A stretch of DNA of 64,000 nucleotides from an uncultured Nitrososphaerota archaeon (GCA_964562935.1 CAZLVJ010000002.1:844-64843), one strand, 5' to 3'; shown: positions 6,676-49,835, counted from the first letter of the stretch. Numbers and translations are program-made. The notes: generated from the sequence alone by a model not told the origin.

Positions 6676-6729
6676 ATCCCTTGTTAGCGAATATGCTTAA
6701 ATCTATAGCGCTACCTTTCAGATTTTGCT

Positions 6730-7809: not shown

Positions 7810-8392
7810 GCATCCGGAGCCCAAGGTCTTGCTAGAGCAGTACACATTGGCGAGCGAAGAGGTGAGCGATATACTGTGGACCATAGAAACGGCATTTGGC
7901 GACATAAGCGGGAAGGTGCTTGTGGACTTAGGTTGCGGGACTGGGAGGTTGGCCATAGGTTCGGCACTGCTTGGCGCGAGCTACGTCGTCGGCGTCGATG
8001 TGGACGAAGTCGCGTTGAGGGTGGCTGCCAAATCTGCCAAGAAGCTGGGGGTCGAAGATAGGACCTCGTGGGTTTTAGCTTCAGTCCAAAACCTCGACAT
8101 GAGAGCCGACGTCGTAGTTCAAAACCCTCCCTACGGAGTGAAAAGAGAAGGAGCTGATAGGCCCTTCCTAGAGGCCGCCCTAAAAATAGCTCCTATAGTC
8201 TATAGCCTTCACAAATCGGGCTGGAAGAATAGGCAGTTTCTGAAAAGGTTTATCAAGAGCTTGGGTGGAATAGTTGACAGAGTCATACCCCTTGAAATAA
8301 CTATAAGACCGACCTTCGAGTTCCACGCCAAGAAGAGCTACAAGGTTAAGGTGGACCTTTATAGGATAATGAGGAAGAGTGAAGGTTCATGA
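7754..8392 (+). CDS. METTL5-like RNA methyltransferase (COG2263)
   Basis: 212 aa; VDLGCGTGRLAIG SAM motif; VVQNPPYG; conserved Dph2-MTase-Csl4-RpoL cluster. Confidence 0.6.
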   Translation: MIGNLTKKQLAILLSKVDEHPEPKVLLEQYTLASEEVSDILWTIETAFGDISGKVLVDLGCGTGRLAIGSALLGASYVVGVDVDEVALRVAAKSAKKLGVEDRTSWVLASVQNLDMRADVVVQNPPYGVKREGADRPFLEAALKIAPIVYSLHKSGWKNRQFLKRFIKSLGGIVDRVIPLEITIRPTFEFHAKKSYKVKVDLYRIMRKSEGS

Positions 8393-20608: not shown

Positions 20609-20693
20609 GCCGGGATGGCCGAGCGGACCAAGGCGCCAGCCTTGAGAGCTGGTGCCCCATTGGGGCGCGCGGGTTCGAATCCCGCTCCCGGCG
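20609..20693 (+). tRNA. tRNA-Ser (anticodon TGA), no encoded CCA, no intron
   Basis: Manual cloverleaf: acceptor GCCGGGA/TCCCGGC, anticodon stem CCAGC/GCTGG with loop CTTGAGA, long variable arm, T-arm GCGGG-TTCGAAT-CCCGC, discriminator G. Confidence 0.8.
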
Positions 20694-20726
20694 CTACTAC
20701 AAAAGCTTCTCCACGAGGAGGTCTAC

Positions 20727-34511: not shown

Positions 34512-36167
34512 ATGGCCGCTGTTAGTGGCATTCCCGTCTTAATATTGAAGGAGGGCGCTACAAGGACTTATGGCAGAGAAGCTCAGAGGGCCAACATAGC
34601 TGCTGCGAAGGCCATAGCCGAGACGCTCAAGACTACCTTGGGGCCACGGGGCATGGACAAAATGCTTGTTGACAGCTTAGGAGACGTCACGATAACGAAC
34701 GACGGCGCGACCATACTCGATGAGATGGACGTCCAGCACCCCGCAGCTAAAATGCTCGTGGAGATAGCTAAAGCTCAAGACGAAGAGGTTGGTGATGGAA
34801 CAACCACGGTCGTGGTCTTGGCAGGCGAGTTATTGAAGAGAGCGGAAGAACTCATGGCTAAGAACATTCACCCGACAGTCATAATAGACGGCTACGGCAA
34901 AGCGCTTGAGTTCTGCCAGAAAGAGCTCGAGAAGCTAAGCTTGCCCGTCAGTCTCCAAGACGAAGAGCTTTTGAAGTTGATAGCCAAGACCTCGATGCAC
35001 GCTAAGGTGGTGAGCGCCGCGAGGGACTACTTAGCAGAGCTGGCCGTCAAAGCTGTTAAGCAAATAGTCGAAGAAAGAAACGGTAAGCTAGTGGCCGACG
35101 TCGACCAAGTACAGTTGATCAAGAAGCAAGGTGGTAGCGTCATGGACACTAAGCTGATCCAAGGAATCATAGTGGACAAGGAGGTCGTTCACACAGGCAT
35201 GCCCAAGCGCATAGAGAACGCGAAAATCGCGCTTCTCGACTGCCCATTGGAAGTAGAGAAAACCGAGATCGACGCGGAAATAAGGATAAGCGACCCTGCT
35301 CAAATGAAGGCCTTCATAGAGGAAGAGGAGAAAATATTAAGAGGGATGGTGGAGAAGATCAAGAACATAGGCGCGAACGTCGTATTCTGCCAGAAGGGTA
35401 TAGACGATGTAGCTCAGCACTACTTGGCTAAGGCTGGGATCCTAGCAGCTCGAAGGGTGAAGAAGTCGGACATGGAGAAGTTAGCTCGAGCCACCGGCGC
35501 TAGGATTGTAACCAACATCGAGGACCTGACGCCCAACGACCTAGGATACGCTGAGCTCGTCGAGGAGAGGAAGATTGCTGACGAGAAGCTGATATTCGTT
35601 GAAAACTGCAAGAACCCGAGGTCCGTGGCCATACTGATAAGGGGAGGGCTGGAGAAGTTCGTAGACGAGGCCGAGAGGGCGCTAAAGGACGCTCTGAGCT
35701 CTGTCGCTAGGGCAATCGAGTGGGGACGCTATGTACCTGGCGGTGGAGCCATCGAAATAGAGCTGGCCAAGAGGTTACGTGAATATGCAGCTAAAGTCGG
35801 AGGAAAGGAGCAGCTGGCAATAGAGGCCTTCGCTAACGCCCTAGAGGCGATACCGAGGACTCTGGCGGAGAATGGAGGGCACGATCCGATAGACGTGATG
35901 ATGGCCCTACGCGCAGAGCACGAGAAGGAGGGCAATTACTACGTGGGCGTAGACGTTTACACAGGGAAGCCCGTTGACATGCTCAAGATGGGCGTTGTAG
36001 AGCCCTTGGCTGTCAAGGCAACTGCCCTAAAGGCCGCTACAGAAGCAGCCGCCATGATATTGCGCATAGACGACGTGATAGCAGCTGCTAGAAGCGAGAC
36101 AGCGAAGGAAAAAGCAGGAACAGGGACTAAAGAGAAGGAGGAAGGCGAAGAGAAAGAGAAAGACTAA
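34512..36167 (+). CDS. ths: Thermosome subunit (group II chaperonin)
   Basis: 551 aa; [34 protein letters not shown] motifs. Confidence 0.9.
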
Positions 36168-36195
36168 AACGTCACTAATCAATTTTTTATGAATA

Positions 36196-36828
36196 ATGAT
36201 GAAAGACGGCTCGAGAGTACTGATAACCGGGACTCCTTCTACGGGCAAAACAACGACAGCAAAAAGGTTAGCTGAAACTCTTAATTACCATTACACTGAC
36301 GTTGCAAAAGTGATAGTCGAAGAAAAGTTGTACAAAAGTCTAGATGAGGAGAGAGGTAGTTTTATCGTAGACATAAAGAGGGCCAGAGAGTTCTTCGCAA
36401 CGTACCTCACAGAACGGCAGGGTGTCGTCTTAGATAGCCATGTCGTTGAGATATTTCCGAGAAAGCTCATAGACAAGGTGCTGGTCTTAAGAGTACACCC
36501 CCTCATCATCCTGAAGAGAGGGGTCGAGAGGAGGTGGCCGCTGAGAAAATGTTTAGAAAATGCGCAAGCAGAGCTCTTGGGCATATGCCTTTCTGACGCC
36601 TTACGATACTACGGTAAGAAAAAAGTCTGGCAAGTCAATTGTACGTGTCGCTCAGCAGAAGACGTAGTCTCGGAAATTCTATGCATACTTCAAGGCAAAG
36701 GAGAGAGGAGAGACGTAGATTGGCTCGTAGAACTTGAGAAAGAAGGAAGACTTGACTTGTTATTGGAGATTGAAAAAGCTCGTGATCTGCCTAAAGATCT
36801 CTTCAAACTTTTGAACAACTGTGGATAA
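36196..36828 (+). CDS. Fap7/AK6-like nucleotide kinase
   Basis: 210 aa; VLITGTPSTGKTTTAKRLA P-loop, size/architecture of archaeal Fap7. Confidence 0.5.
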   Translation: MMKDGSRVLITGTPSTGKTTTAKRLAETLNYHYTDVAKVIVEEKLYKSLDEERGSFIVDIKRAREFFATYLTERQGVVLDSHVVEIFPRKLIDKVLVLRVHPLIILKRGVERRWPLRKCLENAQAELLGICLSDALRYYGKKKVWQVNCTCRSAEDVVSEILCILQGKGERRDVDWLVELEKEGRLDLLLEIEKARDLPKDLFKLLNNCG

Positions 36829-37005
36829 GAAATCTCCAGTAGCTTTGCCAGCATTAGTCAGCGTTGCATTAACCCCTCCTAAAAGCCCTACAACCATAGA
36901 CAAAATTATCGAGAGTAACACTACCGAAATACCTATGAGCATGCCCTCTTCCAAAAGCAATGACCCTCTAACGCTCTTTTTATCGTTCTCGGGCATACGT
37001 TTCAC
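36760..37005 (-). CDS. Flp/type-IV-pilin-like prepilin candidate
   Basis: 81 aa; charged leader MKRMPENDKKSVRG then SLLLEEGMLIGISVVLLSIILSMVVGLL hydrophobic helix; G|xxxxEEG resembles the Flp G|xxxxEYG motif; last gene of pilus-like operon. Confidence 0.35.
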   Translation of the reverse strand: MKRMPENDKKSVRGSLLLEEGMLIGISVVLLSIILSMVVGLLGGVNATLTNAGKATGDFLSTVVQKFEEIFRQITSFFNLQ

Positions 37006-37029
37006 GATTTCTTGTAAGACGAAGGGCTA

Positions 37030-37848
37030 TTAAACCCATCCATAGAGAGGTGGAAATATCAGAGCAGCAAAGATCGTAAAGCAGACGGCCAAGTTTTTGA
37101 GAGACGGGTGATGCAACTGAATTATGTAAGTGAAGAGCGTGAAAATCGTTATGGATAATAGAGCAAATGATGTGAAGACGTAAACACTGGCCGTGAGATT
37201 CGTGGACGTAAACTTCGCAAGTGTAAAGAAGGCCTTTATAATAAAGCCTAGAGCCATGGCCGAGGCAATCTGCAACACCCTGTACTTCAACTTCTCGACA
37301 GCGATGAGATCCCTTAACTTTTTAGCGTTAAGGCAGAGCGAAAAGCTCAGGTCATGCAATGATATCATGAGACTTCTCAAAGAAATTTCATCGATGAAGT
37401 CAAGCTTTTCTAATAATGAGAGGGCGAGCCTCGTTAAGGGCGATGAAGGCCTTGTCCCTCCTGAAGCACGTGCACTCTTGACTTTCAATATTTTCTTGCA
37501 AAGCATAACTTTTACCATTTCCCTCGCTTTGAGTAAAGCCTCTGACCTCTTGTAGGACATTTTATAGGCTTCTTCCAATAAAGAAGGCAAATTCCTCCGA
37601 TTGCTTAAGGACTCAATAAATCTGATGATAAGTAAATGAAGGGCTTCATAATCGGTAAAGCGGTTGTTCAGTTCCGTGACTACTTCGATACAGCTTTTCA
37701 TAACTATGTAAACGGAGAGAGCTATTGCAAGGGAACAAGAGGAGGAGAGGAAGTAGTTTGATGTTATTGAGGAGGAGAAGAGGAAGTAGTTTAAAGCGAA
37801 TATCAGAGACGAGAGGACGGCTTTCTTGATCAAAGTCACGTCGATCAC
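37030..37848 (-). CDS. TadC/FlaJ-like (T2SSF-fold) polytopic membrane platform protein
   Basis: 272 aa; N-terminal TM helices, ~150-aa charged helical cytoplasmic domain, C-terminal TM pair; operonic with secretion ATPase. Confidence 0.4.
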   Translation of the reverse strand: MIDVTLIKKAVLSSLIFALNYFLFSSSITSNYFLSSSCSLAIALSVYIVMKSCIEVVTELNNRFTDYEALHLLIIRFIESLSNRRNLPSLLEEAYKMSYKRSEALLKAREMVKVMLCKKILKVKSARASGGTRPSSPLTRLALSLLEKLDFIDEISLRSLMISLHDLSFSLCLNAKKLRDLIAVEKLKYRVLQIASAMALGFIIKAFFTLAKFTSTNLTASVYVFTSFALLSITIFTLFTYIIQLHHPSLKNLAVCFTIFAALIFPPLYGWV

Positions 37849-38478
37849 CTAAACTAAAATATTTGCATACCGCTTCAAGACTATGATTACTAGTTGCAAG
37901 ACAATACCATAAAACAGTGATGCCACTAATGGTAGCAAGCTAAGCGCTTCTCTTTGGTGGAATAGGGCTAAGAGAGTTACGAGCACGGGAGCTATGGTTA
38001 TGCCAGTCAGCACCAATGTGATGATATTTCTAACGTTAGTTGTGAACAACCTACTCCGCAAGTCTCTTACAACTCCTTGAAATAAAAGAGCGTTGATCCT
38101 CTCTCTATCTTGGGAGAGAGGGTCAGAAAAAATTATGCTGAAGAAGGGAGGGTTAAGCTCTGAGGTCTCTATGTTTCGTCCCAAAGAGAGTTTTTGGGCG
38201 AGCAATTTTATTTGCGGAGTTAATACATCACACGAGTCGTTTAACCTTGTTAAAGCTATAAATGCCGACGGGCTATTGCGATATATGTGATGCATTATTG
38301 ATGCCATTTTCACTAACAAAGGATTTGGTCCAACCACAAAACCCTGCCTCTTGAATTCTTTTATCTGATAACTGAAAATCGCGCTGAAAGTCGCTATCAA
38401 AATTGATGATAAAAGAACCATGTGAGGCTCAGATAGCATACACACCCTCTTTTGTGAGTTTTTTAAGAAAGTCATCAA
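37849..38478 (-). CDS. TadB/FlaJ-like membrane platform protein (true start probably an internal Met near 38421-38439)
   Basis: 209 aa; TM - cytoplasmic domain - TM-TM topology; ORF-track start overlaps ATPase by 50 nt. Confidence 0.4.
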   Translation of the reverse strand: MMTFLKNSQKRVCMLSEPHMVLLSSILIATFSAIFSYQIKEFKRQGFVVGPNPLLVKMASIMHHIYRNSPSAFIALTRLNDSCDVLTPQIKLLAQKLSLGRNIETSELNPPFFSIIFSDPLSQDRERINALLFQGVVRDLRSRLFTTNVRNIITLVLTGITIAPVLVTLLALFHQREALSLLPLVASLFYGIVLQLVIIVLKRYANILV

Positions 38479-40555
38479 AAGCCTTCGTGAAATGCTCGAC
38501 GTCTGATGGGGGGCTTAATGTTAGTGAACTAAACAACGCCTTTAACTCTTCGTATTCCCTTCTCAACGTATTATGACTATTTCCTAGCCCTAAAAGCTTG
38601 AAAATCGAGGGTGATTTAAAAACGTCGTCTAAGATGATTTTGTGTAAATCTCTTTCGGGGCTCCATTTGAATATCAAACTTAGAGGGATGTCGAGGGGGT
38701 CGGTGGAGGTCGATTCTAAGGTACCAATAGCCCACACCTCTGCGACACGCCTTAGAATTTTAGAGCCCCGATAACACTTCACCATGTGGACTATTAAGTC
38801 TATGCCGCTCAAATCCTCCTTCGAGATACCGCAATGCAGTAGCAGGCGCCTTATTAAGCCAGAGGCCGAGGAGGCGTGGCATGTATGTACTCCTCGAAGA
38901 CCCGCTGCCACAGCGTGAAATAAAGCTTTGAAGTGTTCCTTTGACTGCAACTCCCCTAAGCAGACCCAGTCGGGAGTTCTGTGCAAAAGCTTTATTATCT
39001 CCATAGATTTTTTACGAGTCTTCTCTGCCACTTCAAAAGGCTCAACATAAAGTCTAAGTTGATGGCGACCTTGGTCTCTTTGATCTAAGCTCTCAACGAC
39101 GTCCTCTACGTAGACTTTACGCCAGTATTTGGGGGTGCACAAATCAAGAGCGTTCATTAGCGTAGTTTTTCCGGTCCCAGGTTCACCACAAATTATGATG
39201 TTTCTCCTATTTATAACGTGCAAAACTAAGAAGGCTGCCTCTTCTAACGACAATACATTATTGAGGACAAGGTCCACTATTGTGTAGACCCTATGCCTTA
39301 GCTTTCGAAGGTCGAGCGAGGGACCTTCGTGAGAAAGAGGAGGTACATCTATTGATGTCCTGACGATAAAATCGCCTAACCTTAGGTTCCACTTCAGTGA
39401 AGGATTTAAATAACTTAGTGGCAATTTGCTTTCAAGCAACACGTGATTTATAAAGCGTTGCACATCCTTGCTCGTTAGTGTTACATTGGTCACGCATCTC
39501 CCAACTTCTTCATGATCTACGTACACCTTTGTCCCAGGCTTGTCGAGGTAAACCTCATCGACGTGCCCATCCAGTAAAAAAGGCATCAATTTATGAACCC
39601 CCAAGGCTCTATACGCTGAGAAGAGCGCGACCTTCTTAATCAAAGGGTCATCCCCGCGGACTAAGCCCTTGGTCTTCACGATGTCTTCGAACATGTCCTT
39701 TAAAAGGCATATCTTGTACCATAAAGAGTCTTGCCTTATCATTTTGTCTAGGATCCCTCCACCGACGCTATCAATTAACATATCTGAGAGGTACTTTGCT
39801 GCGTAAGGCAAGTTTAACGATACGCGGTATAGGTGTTCAGACGATTGAAAGTCGTATATCTCTATATCGAAGACGTCTACCTCGTAACTTTTAATTGGAA
39901 ATCCTTTGTGGTACTCGTCGATAAAAGCTATTTTCATAACTTTCTGTGGACGAAATATCTCTTTATAAATTTCATTTTCAAACATATAATAACTGTTCTT
40001 AGATAGGAGAACAAATTGCGACTCTTCGATTTCCTTTAGAGAGGATGCTAGGAGAGATTTGAGCTCTTTAGCGCACCTTCTATTCCTACATCGCACTTTA
40101 TTGGCCTCGCAGAAAGCTAGACGTAGGAAGTCATAAAAGGCAAGGGGGTTGGTATAGGCGAGGCCTGTATTGTCAAAAAATGATAGATGATCTTTACAGT
40201 CAGCAACACTCCTATACAGTACGCATGAGTAAGAGCATCGAGGATCGTGGAAGGATTGCTTGGTCCAGAGCTTCATGAAATTTTTCCTAAGTTTAGAGAG
40301 CCTATGAGAGTAATCGCTCAATAATTTTATGGTCGAGGGGCTGTATTTTACGAGAGAGCCTTTCTCTTGGACTAGAAGAAGGGTCTTTTTTGAGCTTCCG
40401 CTTAGCAATGACAACCTTAGGAGGAGCTTGCCCCTGCACGCCTCCTTACCCACTAAATCCGGTTCATCGCCTCGACATCTCACGATGATGACCGTCCTCT
40501 CTTTCTTAAACAGCACTTTAACACAGTCTTCGTTAATACAATGAGACGTCATCAT
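38429..40555 (-). CDS. TadA/CpaF/FlaI-family type IV filament secretion ATPase with long Cys-rich N-terminal extension
   Basis: 708 aa; Walker A IIICGEPGTGKTT, Walker B/His-box PDWVCLGELQSKEHFKALFHAVAAGLRGVHTCHASSA typical of VirB11/TadA/FlaI; about 170 N-terminal residues with at least 10 Cys. Confidence 0.65.
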   Translation of the reverse strand: MMTSHCINEDCVKVLFKKERTVIIVRCRGDEPDLVGKEACRGKLLLRLSLLSGSSKKTLLLVQEKGSLVKYSPSTIKLLSDYSHRLSKLRKNFMKLWTKQSFHDPRCSYSCVLYRSVADCKDHLSFFDNTGLAYTNPLAFYDFLRLAFCEANKVRCRNRRCAKELKSLLASSLKEIEESQFVLLSKNSYYMFENEIYKEIFRPQKVMKIAFIDEYHKGFPIKSYEVDVFDIEIYDFQSSEHLYRVSLNLPYAAKYLSDMLIDSVGGGILDKMIRQDSLWYKICLLKDMFEDIVKTKGLVRGDDPLIKKVALFSAYRALGVHKLMPFLLDGHVDEVYLDKPGTKVYVDHEEVGRCVTNVTLTSKDVQRFINHVLLESKLPLSYLNPSLKWNLRLGDFIVRTSIDVPPLSHEGPSLDLRKLRHRVYTIVDLVLNNVLSLEEAAFLVLHVINRRNIIICGEPGTGKTTLMNALDLCTPKYWRKVYVEDVVESLDQRDQGRHQLRLYVEPFEVAEKTRKKSMEIIKLLHRTPDWVCLGELQSKEHFKALFHAVAAGLRGVHTCHASSASGLIRRLLLHCGISKEDLSGIDLIVHMVKCYRGSKILRRVAEVWAIGTLESTSTDPLDIPLSLIFKWSPERDLHKIILDDVFKSPSIFKLLGLGNSHNTLRREYEELKALFSSLTLSPPSDVEHFTKAFDDFLKKLTKEGVYAI

Positions 40556-40577
40556 CGTACTAGTCTCAACTAAGGCG

Positions 40578-40586
40578 TTTTATAGA
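40578..40586 (-). promoter_or_regulatory. TATA-like box (tctataaaa on minus strand) about 27 nt upstream of ATPase ATG; leaderless-type promoter
   Basis: Position and AT-rich sequence. Confidence 0.3.
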
Positions 40587-40711
40587 CCAACATAGCTGGT
40601 TAGCGAGTCGCCTACTACCGCAGGAGAGATGCGCACATTTGTTTTGCTGAGCCGAAAGGTTTTAGCCTATGCTCGAAGGACTACACTTAAGCCCGACCTT
40701 AGCATTCTAAT

Positions 40712-41449
40712 ATGACTCAAAGGGGGCCGCATTATATGTCAGTGAGCGTCGTGTTGAAGGAGCGCATACCTAGGGACTCGATATTCGTCACAGGATTTCA
40801 AGGGATGGGGATCGCGGGGTATATAGCCGTTAGGCACATGATTCGTGCGTTAAACGCTAAGCCCCTAGGTTTTATTATGCTAAAGAGAATGCCTCCTTAC
40901 GTGTGGATGGAGGGCAACAGGCTCGCAACTCCTATGCAACTCTTTGGATACCAAAACTATGTCTTCATGCTAGTAGAGTTCATGCCCCCAATGCCAGACT
41001 TGTACGTGTTCGTAGATAAGATCTGTGAATGGATTTCTGAAACATTTATTGAGGCATTCCTCATTGGAGGCCTTGACCTAAGGGTCAGAAAAGAGGGAGA
41101 GAGCGAGAGAGCAAAGTTCGCAGCTACTACTAAGGCCATAGACAAGGTGCTTAAGCAAGGGTATAGAGTATTAGATAGTGGCCTGTACATCACAGGCCCT
41201 TTGGCACTGATGCTCATGAAGTTTGAGCAATTAAATTTCCCAGCTTTAGCGGTATTGGCCTATGCTAATGCTTCAAGGCCCGACCCTATGGCCGCAGCAA
41301 TAGCCATTCAGTACTTCAGTGAAATGTACGGAGTTAAAGTGGACGTCGATGAGTTGATAAGAGATGCACAAAGAATAGAAGCCGAAATAGAGGAGAGCCT
41401 AAGGAGAAGGCAGGAAAAAGTCACGGAGATGAGTGCTCTATACATTTAA
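40712..41449 (+). CDS. PAC2-family (proteasome assembly chaperone-like) protein
   Basis: 245 aa; FVTGFQGMGIAGYIAVRHMI resembles the PAC2 GFPGxGxVG motif. Confidence 0.45.
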   Translation: MTQRGPHYMSVSVVLKERIPRDSIFVTGFQGMGIAGYIAVRHMIRALNAKPLGFIMLKRMPPYVWMEGNRLATPMQLFGYQNYVFMLVEFMPPMPDLYVFVDKICEWISETFIEAFLIGGLDLRVRKEGESERAKFAATTKAIDKVLKQGYRVLDSGLYITGPLALMLMKFEQLNFPALAVLAYANASRPDPMAAAIAIQYFSEMYGVKVDVDELIRDAQRIEAEIEESLRRRQEKVTEMSALYI

Positions 41450-41472
41450 AGTGATTAGATCATCGAGTTGTT

Positions 41473-43074
41473 TTAACGACCTTCGATAAGCTCCCTCAAT
41501 AAGAGGAGTAGGTTCTCTAGATCCTCGGTGGTGTAAAGTTTTTTTGAGTGTAGGACTTTAACATTGTTACACGACCCCTTGCATGCAACCTCCAAGTACT
41601 TGCTCCATCGTCTTACATCATTATAAAGGAGTATTGCTTTGGGCTCGAAAATCCTTAGAAGCTTTTTCGCCTTAGAGCTCACGTACATTTTAGATAACGC
41701 ATCAAGCTTGCTAGGTGCCTCATATTGTGACAGGGGGAAAACTCCATTAAGCTCGAGAGGGACTAAGCAAAAAGGGTAATCGTAGAGGAGCACTTTGACG
41801 TTTTTATGATTTTTAAAGCCGTGACTTATTCTCTCAATTAGTTTTTTAACGAAGCCGTCGAATAGCGGATCGTCCTCCTTGGGTATTAGAACCAAGACCT
41901 TTCCATGAAAATGACTCAGACAGTTCTTAAGATTTTTAAAGTGTCTTATGACTTTAGGCCTAAAGACGTCATAATAATCGTAGAAAAACAAACCAGAGAT
42001 GGAGGGTTTGGTCCTAGGGTCAAGACGTTCAAGAAAATGTCTATATCTCTTGAACTTTAAGAAGGCCAGGAAAAGCCTTGGATGAGCTCTTGATCTCAAA
42101 GAGACATACTCCCATAGCGATCCCTCTCTTATCGACTGTTTGATCCTCCGAATCTCGCCTATAATTGTGTAGAGGTTATGCAAGGCTAGCAACTTTACAC
42201 GTAGACTTGATGGCATTTCGGTGAGTTCTTGCGGTGTATGCTTCGAGCATATGGGACATGAGCAAGGGAAGTGTTCCAAATCCCGTAATCTGTAGGTGCC
42301 GTAAGGTGTCACGTATCTGTCCTCCTTGGCATAGAGGATGTAAGAGGCAGAGTCGAAGAGGTCGCAACCTAATGCTACGGCCATCGAAAGCATCATTGGA
42401 TGGCCTGCACCAAACAAATGTATTGGTTTCTCTAGCGACAACACTACCTTGGAAGTATATATGATGTCGACCAATGCTTCGTAGTTGTATGTTTCCATAA
42501 TTGTCGTTGGGCTTCCAATCGCATAGATGTCGAAGTTTAATGTCGAGAGCTGTTTGGCGCAGTACTTTACCAGGTCTATGTAAGGTGCTCCTTGGACGGG
42601 TCCGACCCATAACACAGTCTCATCGCTCTTGATGGAGCGCAAGGCCTTAGCCCTCTTTATGGTTTCATTTACTCTGCGCAGAGCTTCATCATAAGACGTT
42701 GCCCCCGTAGGATAGTCAAGTATCACTGCTATGTCGCTACCGCACTTTTCTTGTAGGACTACAGCTTCCTCAGGAGTTATATCGACGTTTCCATAGACTA
42801 GTAATTGATAAGCCCCCGAATCTGTCATTACGGGCCCGGGAAAGCCTAGTAGGTCGTGTACGTCAACTACCTTGAGCTCTTGAAAAGCTCTTCGTACGTG
42901 TAAGATGTTCGTTATAAAGGCGTTGAATCCAAGCTCCTCGATCTCCTTCACTGTTATCGTAGTGTCAAATGGATTTATCACTGGAAAGAGGTAAGGAGTC
43001 TCTATCGTACCTCTCCTTGTCCTAAGCCTTCCCAATCTCCCCGCCAGGTCTTTGTCTAAAACTTCAAAGCTCAT
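41473..43074 (-). CDS. tgtA: Archaeosine tRNA-guanine transglycosylase (ArcTGT)
   Basis: 533 aa; MSFEVLDKDLAGRLGRLRTRRGTIETPYLFPVINP TGT N-terminus; CSCPICSK zinc site. Confidence 0.85.
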   Translation of the reverse strand: MSFEVLDKDLAGRLGRLRTRRGTIETPYLFPVINPFDTTITVKEIEELGFNAFITNILHVRRAFQELKVVDVHDLLGFPGPVMTDSGAYQLLVYGNVDITPEEAVVLQEKCGSDIAVILDYPTGATSYDEALRRVNETIKRAKALRSIKSDETVLWVGPVQGAPYIDLVKYCAKQLSTLNFDIYAIGSPTTIMETYNYEALVDIIYTSKVVLSLEKPIHLFGAGHPMMLSMAVALGCDLFDSASYILYAKEDRYVTPYGTYRLRDLEHFPCSCPICSKHTPQELTEMPSSLRVKLLALHNLYTIIGEIRRIKQSIREGSLWEYVSLRSRAHPRLFLAFLKFKRYRHFLERLDPRTKPSISGLFFYDYYDVFRPKVIRHFKNLKNCLSHFHGKVLVLIPKEDDPLFDGFVKKLIERISHGFKNHKNVKVLLYDYPFCLVPLELNGVFPLSQYEAPSKLDALSKMYVSSKAKKLLRIFEPKAILLYNDVRRWSKYLEVACKGSCNNVKVLHSKKLYTTEDLENLLLLLRELIEGR

Positions 43075-43075
43075 A

Positions 43076-43576
43076 TCACGTCTTGCTTTGAGATTGCTTC
43101 GAAGCTATGAACTCCTCAAATATCTTCTTAACTCTTTCAGCTACTGGTCCTGAGCCCTCAATAACTCCTGACTCCGTCACTCTAACTCTATCCATTACCG
43201 TTATGACGCCGACATCTTCGTGTAGGACAACCATGTTCGGAAAGGCTTTTTCAAGGGCTTCTGCTAGACCCTTAAGGTCGAAGGGCTCTTCCAGTCTTAA
43301 GATCTGAGCTACGTAATGGCCGTTAATGAGTACCCTTGCATACGCATTCCCTTTCTCGTCTTTAGCGCTCGCTAATATGAGCGTCAGAGTGCTCTGGTCG
43401 TAAGCTATGAGCTTGCCCTCATACGATGAACCGCTTGCTGTAATAACCCTTACTTTTTTGTCTAATAAGGAAGACAACTCTGTCGAGAACCTCCGCACGG
43501 CCAGGGGTTGAAAACTACTCACTTCATACAACACCTCACAGCTTTTTGCCGAGCCTAGAGTTTGTAGGGGACGCAA
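43076..43576 (-). CDS. Sm-like archaeal protein, SmAP3-type (Sm domain + C-terminal domain)
   Basis: 166 aa; Sm1-like LLDKKVRVITASGSSYEGKLIAYDQSTLTLILASAKD and Sm2-like ARVLINGHYVAQI. Confidence 0.5.
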   Translation of the reverse strand: MRPLQTLGSAKSCEVLYEVSSFQPLAVRRFSTELSSLLDKKVRVITASGSSYEGKLIAYDQSTLTLILASAKDEKGNAYARVLINGHYVAQILRLEEPFDLKGLAEALEKAFPNMVVLHEDVGVITVMDRVRVTESGVIEGSGPVAERVKKIFEEFIASKQSQSKT

Positions 43577-43624
43577 ATTAATTTATATCCTCAATGAGGT
43601 ATTTCTCTTTGCGAGGTGCGCTAA

Positions 43625-44002
43625 ATGGCAAACGGCATTTTGATGGACGTCGAAGCCGAGGTTAGTAAGGTAGAAAAAAGCGGATCAAAGGACTTAAGCG
43701 TAGTCAAATTGATTACATTGGATGGCACGAATATCAGCTTAGAGGTCCCTCACCCTCTTCTACAATTAAAGGGGGGAGAAAAAATACGCCTAGTCATAAG
43801 CACAGATCCTAACATCGAGCACGACGTGAATGGCCTGCTCCTATGCACGATATACAGCATTGAAAAGATCAAGAGCGGAAAAGAGGAGAGGACCTTTGTT
43901 TATGGATCCATCGGGGGGCTTCAAGCCAGAATGGAGGGCAAAGGACTCCACAAAAAGTTTAAAATGGGGGACAAAGTTTACTTGGGTATTAAATTGCTGT
44001 AA
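43625..44002 (+). CDS. rpoG: RNA polymerase subunit Rpo8 (RpoG)
   Basis: 125 aa; KLITLDGTNISLEVPH...EKIRLVIS pattern resembles crenarchaeal Rpo8 OB fold. Confidence 0.45.
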   Translation: MANGILMDVEAEVSKVEKSGSKDLSVVKLITLDGTNISLEVPHPLLQLKGGEKIRLVISTDPNIEHDVNGLLLCTIYSIEKIKSGKEERTFVYGSIGGLQARMEGKGLHKKFKMGDKVYLGIKLL

Positions 44003-44156
44003 AATATACTTTCACTGACCTCTCTCTGCCTATAGTTTTAAAATATCATCAACATGCGCCTACCCTTTTCCGGAAGCTTTATTGTTAATGCTCGTTTAGT
44101 GAGTACAACACAAACTTTAATTTTTAATTTTAAGTTGCGGGCCTTAGTGATGAAAA

Positions 44157-45122
44157 TTGCTTAGAGCAACTTGTGAGGAGTGCGGTGGGACTTTAATCCT
44201 CTCAGAAAGCGGAGAGTATGTCTGTGAGGCCTGCGGGCTCGTCTATGAGGAAACTAAGACGTTCCCACCTCGTAGTTTGACGGCCTGTGGTAAGAGGGGT
44301 GCACAACACTTTGAAGTGCTCAACAAAACACCTTTTAAAGTTCCGATATTTTGGCGTAATGCGTTTAGCAATGACAATATCGAAAAGATTAAGGCGATGG
44401 AGCGTTTTAGCAAGTTAGACTTCGTCCAGCGATATTGCATAGACAAGCTCTCTTTAAGGGCAATCCGAAGAGCTTACGCCGTTTTGCTATCCCTATGCTC
44501 GCTCCTTCCGGTTCAATTATCATCAACTATCAAGAGAAGGTCTCTAGAGGTGTACTACAACGCTGTCTTAAGATTGAGGAGCACGAGGAAAAATCACGTA
44601 GCGCTAATGACGGCCAGCTTTTATGTAGCTGTGAGGGAAAGGTATAGAAATTTTGACCTAACTCTAAAGCAAATAATACTTCACTTAAGGAAGATGGGCG
44701 TAAGCATTTCTATCAGCGACATATTCAGAGCAATCTTCTTGTTAAGAAAGGTCCTAGGCGTCGTTTTAAAGCCTAGAAACCCAGAGGAGTTGTTATCCAT
44801 CGCTATAAGAAAGATTATGAGAGATGAGAGGGTCAAGGAAAAGTTGTTGAGAAATAACATAGATTCTCACCTATACTCAAAAGAGCTCTACAGTGAGGCT
44901 TCTCTATTGCTTAAAAAAGTTAAATGTAGCAAAAGTCCTTTATCGCTTGTAGCCACAGCTGTATATACTGCTGACAAAATCTTGGTTTTAAAACATCAAT
45001 GGAAAGACGTGCTGACACAAAAATCTTTAAGCTCCATATTAAACGTTAGCCCCTTCACCATTAGAGAGCTATATTACAAAATATTTAGAAAGTACATCTT
45101 TGGTGATCGGAGTGAGGAGTAA
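44157..45122 (+). CDS. tfb: Transcription factor B paralog (TTG start; Zn ribbon + two cyclin-like repeats)
   Basis: 321 aa; N-terminal TCEECGGTLILSESGEYVCEACGLVYEE ribbon; cyclin-fold-like ALMTASFYVAVRE and SLVATAVYTADKI...FTIRELYYKI. Confidence 0.65.
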   Translation: MLRATCEECGGTLILSESGEYVCEACGLVYEETKTFPPRSLTACGKRGAQHFEVLNKTPFKVPIFWRNAFSNDNIEKIKAMERFSKLDFVQRYCIDKLSLRAIRRAYAVLLSLCSLLPVQLSSTIKRRSLEVYYNAVLRLRSTRKNHVALMTASFYVAVRERYRNFDLTLKQIILHLRKMGVSISISDIFRAIFLLRKVLGVVLKPRNPEELLSIAIRKIMRDERVKEKLLRNNIDSHLYSKELYSEASLLLKKVKCSKSPLSLVATAVYTADKILVLKHQWKDVLTQKSLSSILNVSPFTIRELYYKIFRKYIFGDRSEE

Positions 45123-45441
45123 GGTGGTAAAATTGACTTTAGAGAACTTACTAGAGGTGTTGTTAAGCCACGGCATCCAACTACAAAAGATCGAGGAAAT
45201 GATGGCGGAGTTGGGCATCCCTCGAAGTTACATCGAAAGAGCGTTAGCGAACATAATAACGATATTCCCCCAAAAGGGGGTAAAAGAAGGAAAGGAACTG
45301 GGCAACTTAAGCGAGAGAAGGAGAAATTTTGACGAGCAAGCAGAGCTGACAGCACAAATAAGAGAAGTGAAAGAGCTAATCGAAAAAGTCTATAACAAGT
45401 TGTTCTTGACTCGTGATAGTGATGGGCCGGCCCGGACTTGA
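45100..45441 (+). CDS. Hypothetical small protein
   Basis: 113-aa ORF; 3' end overlaps antisense tRNA-Val; no recognisable motif. Confidence 0.2.
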   Translation: MVIGVRSKVVKLTLENLLEVLLSHGIQLQKIEEMMAELGIPRSYIERALANIITIFPQKGVKEGKELGNLSERRRNFDEQAELTAQIREVKELIEKVYNKLFLTRDSDGPART

Positions 45442-45496
45442 ACCGGGGACCTCCCGCGTGTGAGGCGGGCGTTCTAACCAGCTGAACTACCGGCCC
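45424..45496 (-). tRNA. tRNA-Val (anticodon CAC), no intron, CCA not encoded
   Basis: Reverse complement GGGCCGGTAGTTCAGCTGGTTAGAACGCCCGCCTCACACGCGGGAGGTCCCCGGTTCAAGTCCGGGCCGGCCC folds as cloverleaf with anticodon loop CTCACAC. Confidence 0.8.
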
Positions 45497-45527
45497 TCCA
45501 AGAGAGGGGAGGCCGCAGAGCTTAAAG

Positions 45528-45689
45528 TTACTTCTGTACTGAGCGCTTCTTCCATCTTAAGTCATAGGAGCGGCACTTCCGACATCTCTCAGCTGTAGGA
45601 GCGTTTCGAGCGCCACACCTTCGACAGATTTTCACCATCAGCAACTTCTTTTGGGCTATCTGCAACTTAAGCGGATCAGCTATCGGCAT
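45528..45689 (-). CDS. rpl40e: 50S ribosomal protein L40e (small ORF missing from ORF track)
   Basis: Own translation MPIADPLKLQIAQKKLLMVKICRRCGARNAPTAERCRKCRSYDLRWKKRSVQK; C4 pattern typical of L40e. Confidence 0.7.
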   Translation of the reverse strand: MPIADPLKLQIAQKKLLMVKICRRCGARNAPTAERCRKCRSYDLRWKKRSVQK

Positions 45690-45806
45690 GGGAGAGACCT
45701 CCCGAGCTCTTCTTTAGGGTCTACCAGATAAATTTATCCTTGACTTTACGTGGGATGAGTTTAAGAAGCATTATAACCCCAGACTCTAATGTAAGATAGC
45801 GAAAAA

Positions 45807-46091
45807 TTGGGAGAGGGTATGAAAGAGAACGTCGTGATAGTTGGACAGAAACCCACTATGAATTACGTCCTCGCGTGCCTCACACTATTTCACCAAGGGT
45901 TCGGCGAAGTGACTATAAGGGCCAGAGGGAGGGCGATATCGAAGGCCGTTGACGTCGCAAATATCGTAAAGGAAAAATTTATTCCTACTGCTAAGGTTAA
46001 GAGTCTAGAGCTTGGTAACGAGAGGATCGTGACAGAGAGGGGGGACGTCGTTAGCTTAAGCACCATAGTGATAACATTATCGAAAGAGTGA
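45807..46091 (+). CDS. albA: Chromatin protein Alba
   Basis: 94 aa; NVVIVGQKPTMNYVLACLTLFHQGFGEVTIRARGRAISKAVDVANIV canonical Alba. Confidence 0.85.
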   Translation: MGEGMKENVVIVGQKPTMNYVLACLTLFHQGFGEVTIRARGRAISKAVDVANIVKEKFIPTAKVKSLELGNERIVTERGDVVSLSTIVITLSKE

Positions 46092-47966: not shown

Positions 47967-49835
47967 ATGGCAAGCAGTAACCTCTATTGGTGCATGAAGT
48001 GCAACGTCCCTCTGCTCTCAAAGAGATGTGATTTGTGCAACGACAGGAAAGTGATTAAGGAGGTGAAGGTAACCCCGCCAAGTAACGTAAAGCCGATGTT
48101 CGCTGAAGAAAGAAATAGGCTTTGGCGGACAGTGAATGAGCAATACGGCGAAGGTGTAGCACCTCTCATAGCTCCGGACGACAAGATATCATTGCTCAAT
48201 AAGGTACCTCACATAGACGCGGCCTACGAGGTAATAGTCGACGGTCATGTATTAGGCCTTTGGGAATACGATGTAAGAGGAGGGGCGTTTTGCTTCATTC
48301 CCTACATGGAAGGAGCGAGGAGGATGGCCAAGCAAAGAGCGAAAAAGTGGATCTTAGTCGATAGAGGTGCTGAAGAGGCAATAGTAGTGCAAGGAAGGAA
48401 CCTATTGGCGCCAGGCGTTAAAGACTATGATGAGGACATACGTGAGGGGGACTTCGTATACGTGGTAAACGAGGAGTGGAAGGCAATAGCAGTGGGCAAG
48501 ATTGCTAGAGGCTTCAAGCAAAAATTAAGTGAGAGAAGGGGTATGATTGCCAAGATTAGGCGTTTTGCTGAGGCCAAAGACGCGGAGGTATTAGCAAAGA
48601 AGGCCTCGTGGGGCGACGCAGTAGATGCTAATAGAAGTTTTCTCGAAATGATGGAGAGGAAGGCCATAACCTTTATACGAGAGGTCTGCAGAAAGAGCGA
48701 CGACCCCGTGCTTGTGTCTTTTTCTGGAGGTAAAGATAGCTTAGCCACGCTGTTACTCGTCAAAAAAGCCTTAGAAAGCTTGGGTAAAGAGTTTTACGTG
48801 TTGTTCACTGATACTGGAATAGAATATCCTGAGACAATAAACTACATAAAGAGAATCTTAAGGCAATTAAGGCTTGAAGACAAGACGATAAGTGTAAGCT
48901 CGTTCGTAGATTTTTTCAAGGCACTCGATCTCTTCGGCCCTCCAGCCCGAGACTTTAGATGGTGTTGCAAGACCTGCAAGTTAGCGCCTATCGCATATAC
49001 TATAAAGAGCTTGGGAGGCAGGTGCTTAACGTTCATCGGCTTACGTGAGATGGAATCAGCGAAGAGAAGGAGACAGGGCGCTGTGTGGGAAGGCATATGG
49101 GTTAAGGGACAGGTGGGCATCTCCCCGATATACGATTGGAGCACGCTCAACGTGTGGTTATATCTATTTAAAGAGGGGGTCGAGCTAAACCCCTTGTATT
49201 ACAAAGGGCTTGAGCGAATAGGTTGTTGGGTCTGCCCTAGCATGGACTTAGCTGAAATGAGAATAGTCGAAGAAATCATAGGCCCTTCATGGCATGAGTA
49301 TTTAAAGAAAATATCCGAGTCCCTCTCCTTGAGCGAACAGGAAGTGAAGCTAGGCCTGTGGAGGTGGCGCTTTAAGCCCCCTAGGTGGTTGAGGTCGGGA
49401 GAGAAGAAGATGCACAGGAGGCAGGCCAGGTACTTGTACGAGAAAAAGGAGGTTCGAATCGAAAAAGAAGACGATTTTAAGAGATTGCTTAGCATATTAA
49501 AGACCATGTACGAAGTACACGATGAAGGCGGACAAGTGACATTACTGGACAAAGAGAGAAGTATTGCAATTTTAATGAGAGAGAAAGAGAAGATAATTAT
49601 AGAGGCAGAGAGTAGGCATTGGCTTAAAATTTTTAGAGGTACAGCTCGTGCTTTGGCCTGCGTTAAGTGCATGTTGTGTTTTGCTACGTGTCCCAACAAG
49701 GCCATAGAATTAAGGCAAGAGGGTATCGAAGTTTCAACAGAGAAGTGTACAGCTTGCGGTGAATGTAACTACACGTGCCCCGTATGGGCTTACAGCCTAA
49801 AGGCCCCTCATATTGCGAAAAGGTTATTAGAGTAA
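47967..49835 (+). CDS. PP-loop ATP pyrophosphatase (PAPS-reductase/TtuA-like) with N-terminal Zn ribbon/PUA-like domain and C-terminal 2x[4Fe-4S] ferredoxin domain
   Basis: 622 aa; CMKCN...CDLC ribbon; VLVSFSGGKDSLATLLL PP-loop; CVKCMLCFATCP and CTACGECNYTCP ferredoxin motifs. Confidence 0.6.
   Translation: MASSNLYWCMKCNVPLLSKRCDLCNDRKVIKEVKVTPPSNVKPMFAEERNRLWRTVNEQYGEGVAPLIAPDDKISLLNKVPHIDAAYEVIVDGHVLGLWEYDVRGGAFCFIPYMEGARRMAKQRAKKWILVDRGAEEAIVVQGRNLLAPGVKDYDEDIREGDFVYVVNEEWKAIAVGKIARGFKQKLSERRGMIAKIRRFAEAKDAEVLAKKASWGDAVDANRSFLEMMERKAITFIREVCRKSDDPVLVSFSGGKDSLATLLLVKKALESLGKEFYVLFTDTGIEYPETINYIKRILRQLRLEDKTISVSSFVDFFKALDLFGPPARDFRWCCKTCKLAPIAYTIKSLGGRCLTFIGLREMESAKRRRQGAVWEGIWVKGQVGISPIYDWSTLNVWLYLFKEGVELNPLYYKGLERIGCWVCPSMDLAEMRIVEEIIGPSWHEYLKKISESLSLSEQEVKLGLWRWRFKPPRWLRSGEKKMHRRQARYLYEKKEVRIEKEDDFKRLLSILKTMYEVHDEGGQVTLLDKERSIAILMREKEKIIIEAESRHWLKIFRGTARALACVKCMLCFATCPNKAIELRQEGIEVSTEKCTACGECNYTCPVWAYSLKAPHIAKRLLE

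Follow-up and report, generated by a model that had tools for sequence, protein, structure and literature searches.

A four-gene operon of an uncultured Nitrososphaerota archaeon as a candidate minimal Epd/Tad-like type IV filament machine with a linked TFIIB paralogue

The subject of this analysis is a stretch of 64,000 nt from an uncultured Nitrososphaerota archaeon (GCA_964562935.1, CAZLVJ010000002.1:844-64843), referred to below as the window, all coordinates being those of the whole 64 kb counted from its first letter. On its minus strand, at 36760-40555, lie four packed, co-oriented open reading frames (ORFs) which, from the ORF reading of the window, constitute one operon, and we consider it about 70 % probable that this operon encodes a minimal Epd/Tad-like type IV filament (TFF) machine, for which a role in DNA uptake or cell contact is favoured over that of a variable adhesin. 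The predicted products are an ATPase, two platform proteins (TM1 and TM2) and a short Flp-like prepilin, and the core of such a machine thus appears to be complete except for the peptidase. Machines of the Epd/Tad-like kind are known; what is new here is a dedicated TFIIB paralogue, a novel N-terminal domain of the ATPase and an unusually conserved Flp-type pilin. In the literature searched, the coverage of which was incomplete, we found neither a description of this family of Flp-type pilins or of the N-terminal domain of the ATPase nor one of the link with CedD-like genes reported below. An earlier note on this DNA, made from the sequence alone, had pointed to the same four minus-strand genes and read them as an ATPase, a split platform and a short Flp-like prepilin, expressed as one transcript in a housekeeping setting. 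The genes lie where it placed them and that core reading is supported, but the linked genes for the TFIIB paralogue and a coiled-coil protein (44157-45441), and the linkage to CedD-like genes in sister lineages, had been missed.

The four ORFs are genuine, far beyond chance. The stop codon of the ATPase gene and the start of the TM1 gene at ATG 38439 overlap by 11 nt, the TM1 stop abuts the TM2 start (TAG-GTG) and the spacing between the TM2 gene and the small gene is 24-33 nt, so that these junctions leave no room for internal promoters; together with a conserved promoter (see below), they bear out the earlier suggestion of a single transcript. Two of the starts can be read in more than one way. 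The TM1 ORF runs to TTG 38478 (209 aa), with an alternative ATG at 38439, preceded by GAGGGTG, that would give 196 aa; since the database homologues are all of 194-196 aa, ATG 38439 is most likely the true start. For the small gene, GTG 37005 gives 81 aa, and public gene calls use ATG 36996 (78 aa). A pyrimidine-rich tract that may serve as terminator (Table 1) falls within the 3' end of the convergent gene for a Fap7-like AAA_18 kinase (36196-36828). The 3' ends of the small gene and the kinase gene overlap by 69 nt (36760-36828), and a convergent overlap of the two genes, of 66 nt, is also present in the related loci L075-L077.

Table 1. Features of the operon, of its linked genes and of related loci (window coordinates unless a locus is named)
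Feature	Position	Strand	Remarks
ATPase, 708 aa	38429-40555	-	T2SSE; GspE/FlaI/CpaF superfamily
ATPase N-terminal extension, ~317 aa, conserved Cys	39605-40555	-	C27 and C40 nearly invariant, further Cys clusters
Platform protein 1 (TM1), TadB/TadC-like, one T2SSF-type domain, 196/209 aa	37849-38478	-	Putative; topology and orthologue profiles
Platform protein 2 (TM2), TadB/TadC-like, 272 aa (269 aa in NCBI call)	37030-37848	-	Putative; topology and orthologue profiles
Flp-like prepilin, 78/81 aa	36760-37005	-	Putative; class-III/Flp-type motif, conservation, IMG naming of orthologues
Operon promoter: TATAAAA (40578-40584) and upstream ATGTTG element at the position of the TFB recognition element (BRE)	40578-40593	-	ATGTTGnnCTATAAA; from sequence, promoter role inferred
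Pyrimidine/T-rich tract, possible archaeal terminator	36736-36750	-	TCTTCCTTCTTTCTC; from sequence, 10-24 nt past small-gene stop
RNA polymerase subunit Rpo8/RpbG	43625-44002	+	Pfam RNA_pol_RpbG 9e-8; co-oriented with TFIIB paralogue
Divergent TFIIB/TFB paralogue, 321 aa, Zn ribbon and cyclin-like repeats	44157-45122	+	3.6 kb from ATPase gene, beside Rpo8
113-aa cytoplasmic protein, small helical N-terminal domain and coiled coil	45100-45441	+	3' of TFIIB paralogue
Divergent small-protein clusters of sister loci	L079 2957-5230; L005 2170-4443; L045 3779-5861; L004 5191-5586

Relatives of the ATPase were located by a degenerate-pattern scan of one genome per species, which gave 56 archaeal loci, and seven further loci reached through metagenome proteins brought the number to 63, some of them near-duplicates. 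The closest proteins are those of Candidatus Nezhaarchaeales metagenome-assembled genomes (MAGs; Thermoproteota), and the loci come from Nezhaarchaeales, Methanomethylicia, Culexmicrobium, Thermoprotei, Thermoproteales, Nitrososphaerota, Geothermarchaeota and many Asgard lineages (Thor-, Heimdall-, Hermod-, Borr-, Sif-, Hel-, Jord- and Promethearchaeota). The earlier note had suggested a conserved system of this lineage; with 63 archaeal loci it is indeed conserved, but it spans Thermoproteota, Nitrososphaerota and most Asgard lineages and is not peculiar to one lineage. The order ATPase, TM1, TM2 is kept in the window and in most related loci, an arrangement with two separate platform genes after the ATPase gene, as in Tad systems with TadB and TadC.

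The ATPase matches Pfam T2SSE over residues 390-593 (E 2.3e-15; 56.6 bits, cut-off 24.9). Its matches among NCBIfam models are FlaI (3e-25), VirB11 (7e-21), TadA (3e-19) and TrbB (1e-17), all scoring far under the equivalog cut-offs, with ComGA (1.5e-9) among the weak ones, and the protein therefore falls in no named orthologous group. In PDB, residues 318-639 match AfGspE (2oap; 1e-19), Sulfolobus FlaI (4e-17) and CpaF (3e-12), and VirB11 is matched at 2e-7. Nineteen relatives share without exception the Walker A motif GEPGTGKTT, the acidic residues E484/D485, the Walker B-region residues D529 and E535, and H560 and, because these catalytic motifs are so preserved, the enzyme is expected to be active. 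The sequence accordingly shows the Walker A/B, Asp and His boxes of a hexameric ATPase of the PilB/GspE/FlaI family, as found in TFF machines, and 28 full-length relatives were found at E <= 1e-80. The extension that precedes the catalytic region has no match in Pfam or PDB, profile search included. Its own profile, run against 1.84 billion representative proteins, found only 43 proteins, in nearly all of which it is N-terminal in a protein of 650-770 aa, that is, an ATPase; the named carriers are Nezha, Thermoprotei, Odin, Loki, Hel and Promethearchaeota, a distribution which indicates that the whole ATPase architecture is common to TACK and Asgard archaea. Its likely contact is with the platform or with the small coiled-coil protein described below.

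The two genes that follow the ATPase gene in related loci form two families, here called position+1 and position+2, and it is through these that the membrane proteins of the window can be placed. In hhalign comparisons the Nezha TM1 family is linked to the position+1 family (81 % probability, E 1.3e-5, 154 colinear columns) and shows no link to the position+2 family (E 0.04). The Nezha TM2 family is linked to the position+2 family (95-96 % probability, E 1e-9 to 2e-8), and an iterated hidden Markov model (HMM) of the latter draws in TM2 of the window. Five of the 16 members of the position+1 family match Pfam T2SSF (best 1.8e-5), and in the first HMM pass this family matched bacterial TadC from an Acidimicrobiia Tad locus (E 1.2e-6); for the position+2 family the T2SSF matches are weak (2 of 14 members, best 0.007), and hhalign gives E values of 1.6e-4 to 1e-3 against TadC. 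Transmembrane (TM) prediction gave three helices for TM1 (residues 8-26, 142-160 and 169-187, with a K/R-rich loop of 115 aa after the first) and five for TM2 (two N-terminal and three C-terminal, separated by a K/R-rich loop of 132 aa), a layout that fits single-domain T2SSF (TadB/TadC-like) proteins. Furthermore, a single 525-aa protein of a Helarchaeota locus (L040, 7448-9025) matches both families, and this fusion, FlaJ/PilC-like in having two domains, is the form expected for the halves of one platform. By transitive homology and topology, then, both proteins appear to belong to the T2SSF group, the second less strongly than the first, and we accept TM1 and TM2 as a probable TadB/TadC-like platform pair, an assignment firmer for TM1 than for TM2. 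The split platform had been called unusual for archaea in the earlier note. It is instead a hallmark of the Epd-like/Tad clade, which is defined by two single-T2SSF platform genes and short pilins and from an archaeal member of which bacterial Tad is derived (Denise 2019, PMC6668835), and it occurs in several archaeal clades (PMC4858521); as the operon has the hallmarks of the Epd-like/Tad clade, its split platform is diagnostic rather than odd.

The fourth gene encodes a small protein of sequence MKRMPENDKKSVRG/SLLLEEGMLIGISVVLLSIILSMVVGLLGG... (here and below a slash marks the predicted cleavage site), the processing region of which reads KKSVRG/SLLLEEGMLIGISVVLL... A basic N-terminus is followed by R-G/S-L-L-L-E-E, a hydrophobic helix of 19-22 residues and an amphipathic C-terminal helix, and the features of a class-III signal peptide, namely a short basic leader, G or A at -1 and a hydrophobic helix, are all recognizable in the sequence. 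Cleavage is predicted after R13-G14 (81-aa numbering) and would leave a mature protein of 67 aa starting SLLLEEGMLIG... Orthologues occupy the same position and strand in 46 related loci, can be recognized by simple phmmer searches from TACK to Asgard archaea, and share the motif [KR]-[GA]/[SG]-[PL]-L-[VLI]-E-E-[GS]-[LM]-L, in which Glu+5 is invariant in 28 orthologues. As a regular expression this motif is matched by 43 of the 5,449 ORFs across all loci, and all 43 are the orthologous small gene. It joins the archaeal class-III rule (basic residue at -2, G or A at -1) to the Flp signature G/xxxxE-x-G-L-[IL], which in bacterial Flp pilins such as Caulobacter PilA and Aggregatibacter Flp1 takes the form AIEYGLI. 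Several orthologues from Hermod- and Odinarchaeota are named 'Flp pilus assembly pilin Flp' in IMG, whereas NCBI calls them hypothetical.

Among Nezha-type relatives the small gene is the best conserved of the four: its product is 67-81 % identical, while the ATPase reaches 44-57 %, TM2 21-46 % and TM1 19-41 %. With pN of 0.11-0.22 against pS of ~0.7, at which synonymous sites are near saturation, dN/dS is ~0.05-0.1, and the gene is under strong purifying selection; such conservation is unusual for an exposed major pilin. Nezha-type contigs preserve the order PAC2, (beta-CASP RNase), ATPase, TM1, TM2, pilin, Fap7-like kinase, thermosome, histone, S17e, radical-SAM, and because this housekeeping context is retained down to 45 % ATPase identity we take the operon to be vertically inherited rather than part of an island. 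The housekeeping flanks reported earlier (Fap7-like AAA_18 kinase, thermosome, histone, PAC2, TGT, LSm and Rpo8) are indeed present, and the comparison of synteny proposed with them shows that gene set and context recur in relatives. Despite this inheritance, the operon and the genes around it (36000-46000) have a GC content of 0.43-0.46, compared with ~0.48-0.52 in most of the window.

These data also bear on the possibility that the locus is decaying and non-functional, a collection of fast-evolving leftovers with a fortuitous small ORF. Platform proteins only 19-46 % identical among Nezha-type relatives, and a GC content below that of the flanks, could be read in this way, as could the locus of the closest GTDB-representative Nezhaarchaeales MAG (L002, 6001-9559), in which the ATPase gene is split into two ORFs (6001-6855 and 6906-8156) and the second platform gene into three fragments, the pilin gene being intact; the breaks are the result of either pseudogenisation or assembly errors. 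However, in the window, as in L001 and L075-L077, none of the four ORFs is interrupted and the overlaps and promoter are preserved, the small gene is under purifying selection and the catalytic residues of the ATPase are conserved. Decay is hardly credible as an explanation.

A conjugation-like type IV secretion system (T4SS), or a DNA-transfer system resembling Ced or Ted, would assign the parts differently: the ATPase would correspond to VirB11, the small protein would be a pilin of VirB2 type, and the membrane proteins would be channel components like VirB6 or CedA. The matches of the ATPase to the VirB11 and TrbB models (7e-21 and 1e-17) would agree with this, and sister loci encode a CedD-like (VirD4/HerA-like) ATPase. 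Yet among structural relatives of the ATPase AfGspE and FlaI are the best and VirB11 is much weaker (1e-19 versus 2e-7), the membrane protein families match T2SSF and TadC and not VirB6, and the small protein has one hydrophobic helix and the class-III motif G/xxxxE rather than the two-helix hairpin of VirB2, CedA1 and TedC; nor is there a VirB4/CedB gene in the loci. We consider this explanation very improbable, and rejected it on the grounds of the T2SSF and GspE relationships and the class-III motif.

The operon is preceded by a TATA-like box, as had been noted earlier: TATAAAA lies 23-29 nt 5' of the ATPase ATG, within a block, ATGTnGnnnTATAAA, that is invariant 5' of the ATPase gene in five Nezhaarchaeales-type loci, the ATPases of which are only 45-72 % identical. 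The block has a single exact match in the window and, among 81 loci searched, exact matches 5' of the ATPase gene are restricted to those of Nezha type. This conserved block probably acts as a promoter. A search of the window for further copies of the promoter motif that might mark a regulon returned its own copy and two one-mismatch matches, which is the level expected by chance.

A gene for a divergent TFIIB paralogue is linked to the operon. Its product has matches to Pfam Zn_Ribbon_TF (6e-6) and TFIIB repeat (0.011) and aligns over its full length with the NCBIfam TFIIB model PRK00423, although with 33.7 bits against a cut-off of 384. About 55 of the 63 archaeal loci have a TFIIB-family gene no more than ~4 kb away from that of the ATPase, in several arrangements: directly upstream on the same strand in TACK, Hermod- and Thorarchaeota, and downstream on the opposite strand in several Heimdall-, Borr- and Helarchaeota loci. 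These orthologues are likewise full length, with Zn ribbon and cyclin repeats, and score 33-68 bits on the TFIIB model (cut-off 384); from their sequences, the linked proteins are very divergent TFIIB paralogues. The adjacency of the Rpo8 gene and the TFIIB paralogue seen in the window is also found in L075-L077, L079 and L081. The third gene of this group encodes the 113-aa coiled-coil protein, which has no informative Pfam match but is drawn in by an iterated HMM built from proteins of L078, L081, L005 and L030. In Thermoprotei-type loci its orthologues stand immediately upstream of the ATPase gene (L003, L078, L079, L081, L005 and L030). In Nezhaarchaeales the block of Rpo8, TFB paralogue and 113-aa gene is inverted, and LSm, TGT and PAC2 lie between it and the operon. 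The last 19 nt of the 113-aa ORF are overlapped by a minus-strand tRNA-Val(CAC) gene (45423-45496), which with tRNA-Ser(TGA) at 20609-20694 was the only RNA found by an Rfam scan of the window.

The linkage to a TFIIB homologue recalls subclade 4D of Pyrobaculum and Thermoproteus (arCOG05558/05557/05559), which consists of an ATPase with a Cys-rich N-terminus, one diverged TadC-like protein, a TFIIB homologue and RPB8, and for which no pilin was reported and a repurposed, transcription-related role was proposed (PMC4858521); a recent preprint repeats this view (Sivabalasarma & Albers 2026, bioRxiv 10.64898/2026.04.22.720090). The system described here resembles 4D in its Cys-bearing ATPase N-terminus, a diverged TadC-like membrane protein, a dedicated, linked TFIIB homologue and a neighbouring RPB8 gene. 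It differs in that the 4D ATPases are of 335-343 aa and lack the C-terminal domain, as against 708 aa with a complete C-terminal region, and in that 4D has one membrane protein of 4-5 TM helices, a TFIIB with a single cyclin domain and no reported pilin, where we find a pair of membrane proteins together with a prepilin. Among the matches of the searches with the ATPase and with its N-terminal extension there was no sequence from Pyrobaculum or Thermoproteus and, the comparison being one by description and the 4D ATPases of ~340 aa, we do not claim identity of the two. It could nevertheless be argued that the operon is likewise a repurposed TFF remnant that forms no filament and acts in transcription or signalling together with the TFIIB paralogue and Rpo8. 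The linkage to these two genes mirrors 4D, read as repurposed (Makarova 2016; Sivabalasarma & Albers 2026), and the unusual Cys-bearing N-terminal domain of the ATPase and the very divergent platform proteins would suit such a role. Against it stand the prepilin-type gene, which has an invariant Glu+5, is strongly constrained and is always co-oriented and downstream, the intact catalytic motifs of the ATPase, and the difference in ATPase length, which means that the two may be different systems. Furthermore, TFIIB homologues are common in type IV pilus (T4P) loci, bona fide ones included, as regulators (Makarova 2016, PMC4858521). A remnant without a filament is therefore unlikely, and we retain the interpretation of the operon as a TFF machine.

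Characterized filament systems show both likenesses to that machine and differences from it. As in bacterial Tad/Flp (type IVc) pili, a CpaF/TadA-superfamily ATPase is followed by separate TadB/TadC-type proteins, and the pilin is very short and all-helical, with G/xxxxE followed by G-L-[IL] (here LVEEGLL). The locus differs from Tad, however, in that the window ORF list contains no RcpA secretin, TadZ/CpaE, TadD, TadE/F/G or TadV, in that the ATPase is nearer to AfGspE and FlaI than to CpaF and has the 317-aa N-terminal extension, and in its archaeal promoter and TFIIB paralogue linkage. The pilin, too, departs from the bacterial Flp type, which is characterized by a Flp_Fap match and G/xxxxEY: it has G/xxxxEE, with Glu-Glu instead of Glu-Tyr, and does not match Flp_Fap. 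The Epd pilus of Methanococcus maripaludis (Makarova clade 1) is similar in being an archaeal TFF whose platform is encoded by two genes, each for a single T2SSF domain, and whose major pilins are short. Epd loci, in contrast, are euryarchaeal (from methanogens) and complex, with many pilins, large accessory proteins and a dedicated EppA peptidase, whereas here a four-gene core occurs in TACK and Asgard archaea, Glu+5 of the pilin does not vary, and the core is accompanied by a TFIIB paralogue and in many cases by a CedD-like ATPase. Of the features that define Epd, namely EppA, Gln at pilin position +1 and a locus of many pilins and accessory genes, none was found: position +1 is Ser or Gly, and the window has no extra pilins.

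What the filament might do is suggested mainly by the sister lineages. In 26 of the 63 loci a HerA/FtsK-type, CedD-like ATPase gene follows, directly after the pilin gene and at times with a 1-nt gap in Thermoprotei, Nitrososphaerota and Geothermarchaeota, and ~2.5 kb downstream, after an Ig-like surface protein, in Thorarchaeota. By far the best model for these translocases is NCBIfam 'DNA-translocating ATPase CedD' (E 3e-73 to 1e-23), and experiments in Sulfolobus and Saccharolobus have shown that the import of DNA depends on CedD (PMC11823120; PMC11868833). In three Thermoproteota loci the CedD-like gene is succeeded by a co-oriented gene for an XPD-like (DEAD_2/Helicase_C_2) helicase (L003 11264-13033, L078 11288-13057 and L081 12074-13864). 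Sister loci also contain clusters of divergently transcribed genes for proteins of 110-315 aa with a single N-terminal hydrophobic helix and beta-rich C-terminal parts (Table 1), which are possible minor pilins or pseudopilins. The Thorarchaeota-type order (L022, 4241-12873; also L027-L032, L036-L046 and L055) is TFIIB paralogue, ATPase (~560 aa), Flp-like gene, an opposite-strand gene for a membrane-anchored Ig-like (Big_3_5) surface protein of 650-700 aa and then a CedD-like ATPase of 900-1000 aa, and there are no platform genes within the 13-kb stretches examined.

Since the pilin is the slowest-evolving component and the CedD-like and XPD-like genes are recurrent and operonic in sister lineages, we prefer to adhesion a conserved pilus or pseudopilus that, together with a CedD-like pump, serves contact between cells and the uptake of DNA, and this preference is the weakest step in our interpretation. 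The analogy behind it is the competence pseudopilus of Gram-positive bacteria (ComGA/ComGB/ComGC), in which a minimal TFF of ATPase, platform and short pilin is coupled to a cytoplasmic DNA translocase; the likeness is functional only, as ComG has one two-domain platform protein, an ATPase of another clade and no TFIIB-type regulator. A second functional analogy is provided by the Ups and Ced systems of Sulfolobales under TFB3, which combine a type IV pilus, the HerA/FtsK-type ATPase CedD and a TFIIB-family activator (PMC11823120; PMC11868833; PMC6101591). There, however, ups, ced and tfb3 lie apart from one another, the pilins of Ups contain globular domains, and Ced uses VirB2-, VirB6- and VirB4-like parts that are absent here; the sister CedD-like proteins fall under the equivalog cut-off, and none is encoded in the window. 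No CedA or CedB partners occur in the related loci.

The earlier note had thought of a surface-filament or adhesion system. The filament module stands, but adhesion is only one possible role, and DNA uptake is preferred. The gene set would fit an ordinary adhesive surface pilus, with long Flp-like fibres for attachment or biofilm formation and no link to DNA transfer, equally well. Moreover, characterized Epd/Tad systems serve surface attachment (PMC6668835), Thorarchaeota loci carry the Ig-like (Big_3_5) surface protein beside the pilin gene, and loci of Nezhaarchaeales and several Asgard lineages have no CedD-like gene. On the other hand, the pilin is the most conserved component, where exposed adhesive pilins diversify fast (PMC4858521), and the recurrent CedD-like translocase and XPD-like helicase of sister lineages would be left unexplained. 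We regard an adhesive pilus as a possible but doubtful alternative, and continue to favour DNA uptake or cell contact.

Besides the broken genes of L002, several observations weigh against the interpretation as a filament machine for DNA uptake. Archaeal pilins mostly lack Glu+5 and mostly evolve fast, which makes the small protein an atypical archaeal surface pilin. None of the 28 small-protein orthologues matches Pfam Flp_Fap (PF04964), the window protein is also without an NCBIfam match, and Pilin_N is matched by one orthologue (E 0.019). In the absence of Pfam support the Flp assignment rests on motif, context and IMG naming; the 81-aa Flp-like prepilin of the earlier note thus keeps its conserved motif, hydrophobic helix and IMG-named relatives, but the window protein has no Flp_Fap or Pilin_N match to add to them. 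Similarly, TM1 (209 aa) and TM2 (272 aa) have no Pfam or NCBIfam match at E <= 1, and the platform-family profiles gave nothing significant against PDB (PilC, E 0.24). The TadB/TadC-like label is accordingly supported through orthologue profiles and topology, but not by a direct match of the window proteins to the T2SSF profile. The CedD-like proteins of sister loci score 83-247 bits, over the ATPase half only, against an equivalog cut-off of 600 (NF053655). The 64-kb window contains no CedD-like, minor-pilin-like or XPD-like gene, and for this genome the DNA-uptake role is weakly supported. Nor does the window encode an A24 prepilin peptidase, its only other protein with at least five TM helices being an STT3/AglB-type oligosaccharyltransferase (15195-17135); the statement of the earlier note that prepilin peptidase, secretin and other Tad accessory genes are lacking agrees with the window ORF list. 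With no gene for a peptidase, minor pilins or a CedD-like protein in the window, processing and DNA uptake are unsupported from this fragment.

Peptidase candidates were also considered in the related loci. A 193-aa protein with about six TM helices from Nitrososphaera loci (L050, 4566-5147; L047, 4560-5150) was rejected as an A24 peptidase, having no Pfam, NCBIfam or A24 match; its sequence YEDIKDREV recalls the first catalytic Asp motif of A24 prepilin peptidases. Both of these loci have genes for TFB, ATPase, platform and Flp and a CedD-like gene. The remaining multi-TM neighbours proved to be CbiQ, a CDP-alcohol transferase and VIT1. Elsewhere in the window, a 622-aa protein (47967-49835) contains regions that resemble PUA, PAPS reductase and ferredoxin (480 bits for NCBIfam PRK13795-type 'hypothetical protein').

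Our current working hypothesis, which is inferred as regards cleavage of the prepilin, assembly of a filament, regulation through the TFIIB paralogue and the role in the cell, is as follows. The four genes would be expressed on one essentially leaderless mRNA from the conserved TATA box, the ATGTTG element probably being read by the dedicated divergent TFIIB paralogue encoded 3.6 kb away. The hexameric GspE/FlaI-type ATPase would dock on the TadB/TadC-type platform pair. The prepilin would enter the membrane and be cut after Arg-Gly by a class-III signal peptidase (A24) encoded elsewhere in the genome, and the 67-aa all-helical subunit, with its Glu+5, would then be extracted at the expense of ATP and polymerized on the TadB/TadC-like heterodimer into a thin Flp-like filament or a short pseudopilus.

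Type IV filaments are the main surface machines of archaea and, if the filament proposed here is real, the archaeal Epd/Tad-like branch, from which bacterial Tad pili have been proposed to stem, extends into TACK and Asgard archaea. According to a recent preprint TFF are scarce in Asgard archaea, where ordered searches give core components only (Sivabalasarma & Albers 2026, 10.64898/2026.04.22.720090); the module described here provides the pilin that had been missing from TFIIB-linked loci and from the 'core-only' ones of Asgard archaea, and is of value chiefly for comparison. It also offers a candidate pair of specialized promoter and TFB that can be tested in vitro. More speculatively, and with a good deal less confidence than in the filament machine itself, we suggest that the cassette is the reduced Nezhaarchaeales form of an ancient module for natural competence or DNA exchange that predates the split of TACK and Asgard archaea. 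In its full form the module would contain an ATPase whose N-terminal domain is unique, a platform in two parts, a Flp-type pilin conserved to an extreme degree, a CedD-like translocase and a TFIIB paralogue of its own, and the pseudopilus would hand DNA to the HerA/FtsK-type pump. If this were true, it would account as well for the 4D loci described as 'pilin-less, repurposed' and for the TFF loci of Asgard archaea described as 'core-only' and, provided that the filament is real, eukaryotes' closest prokaryotic relatives may possess a DNA-uptake system.

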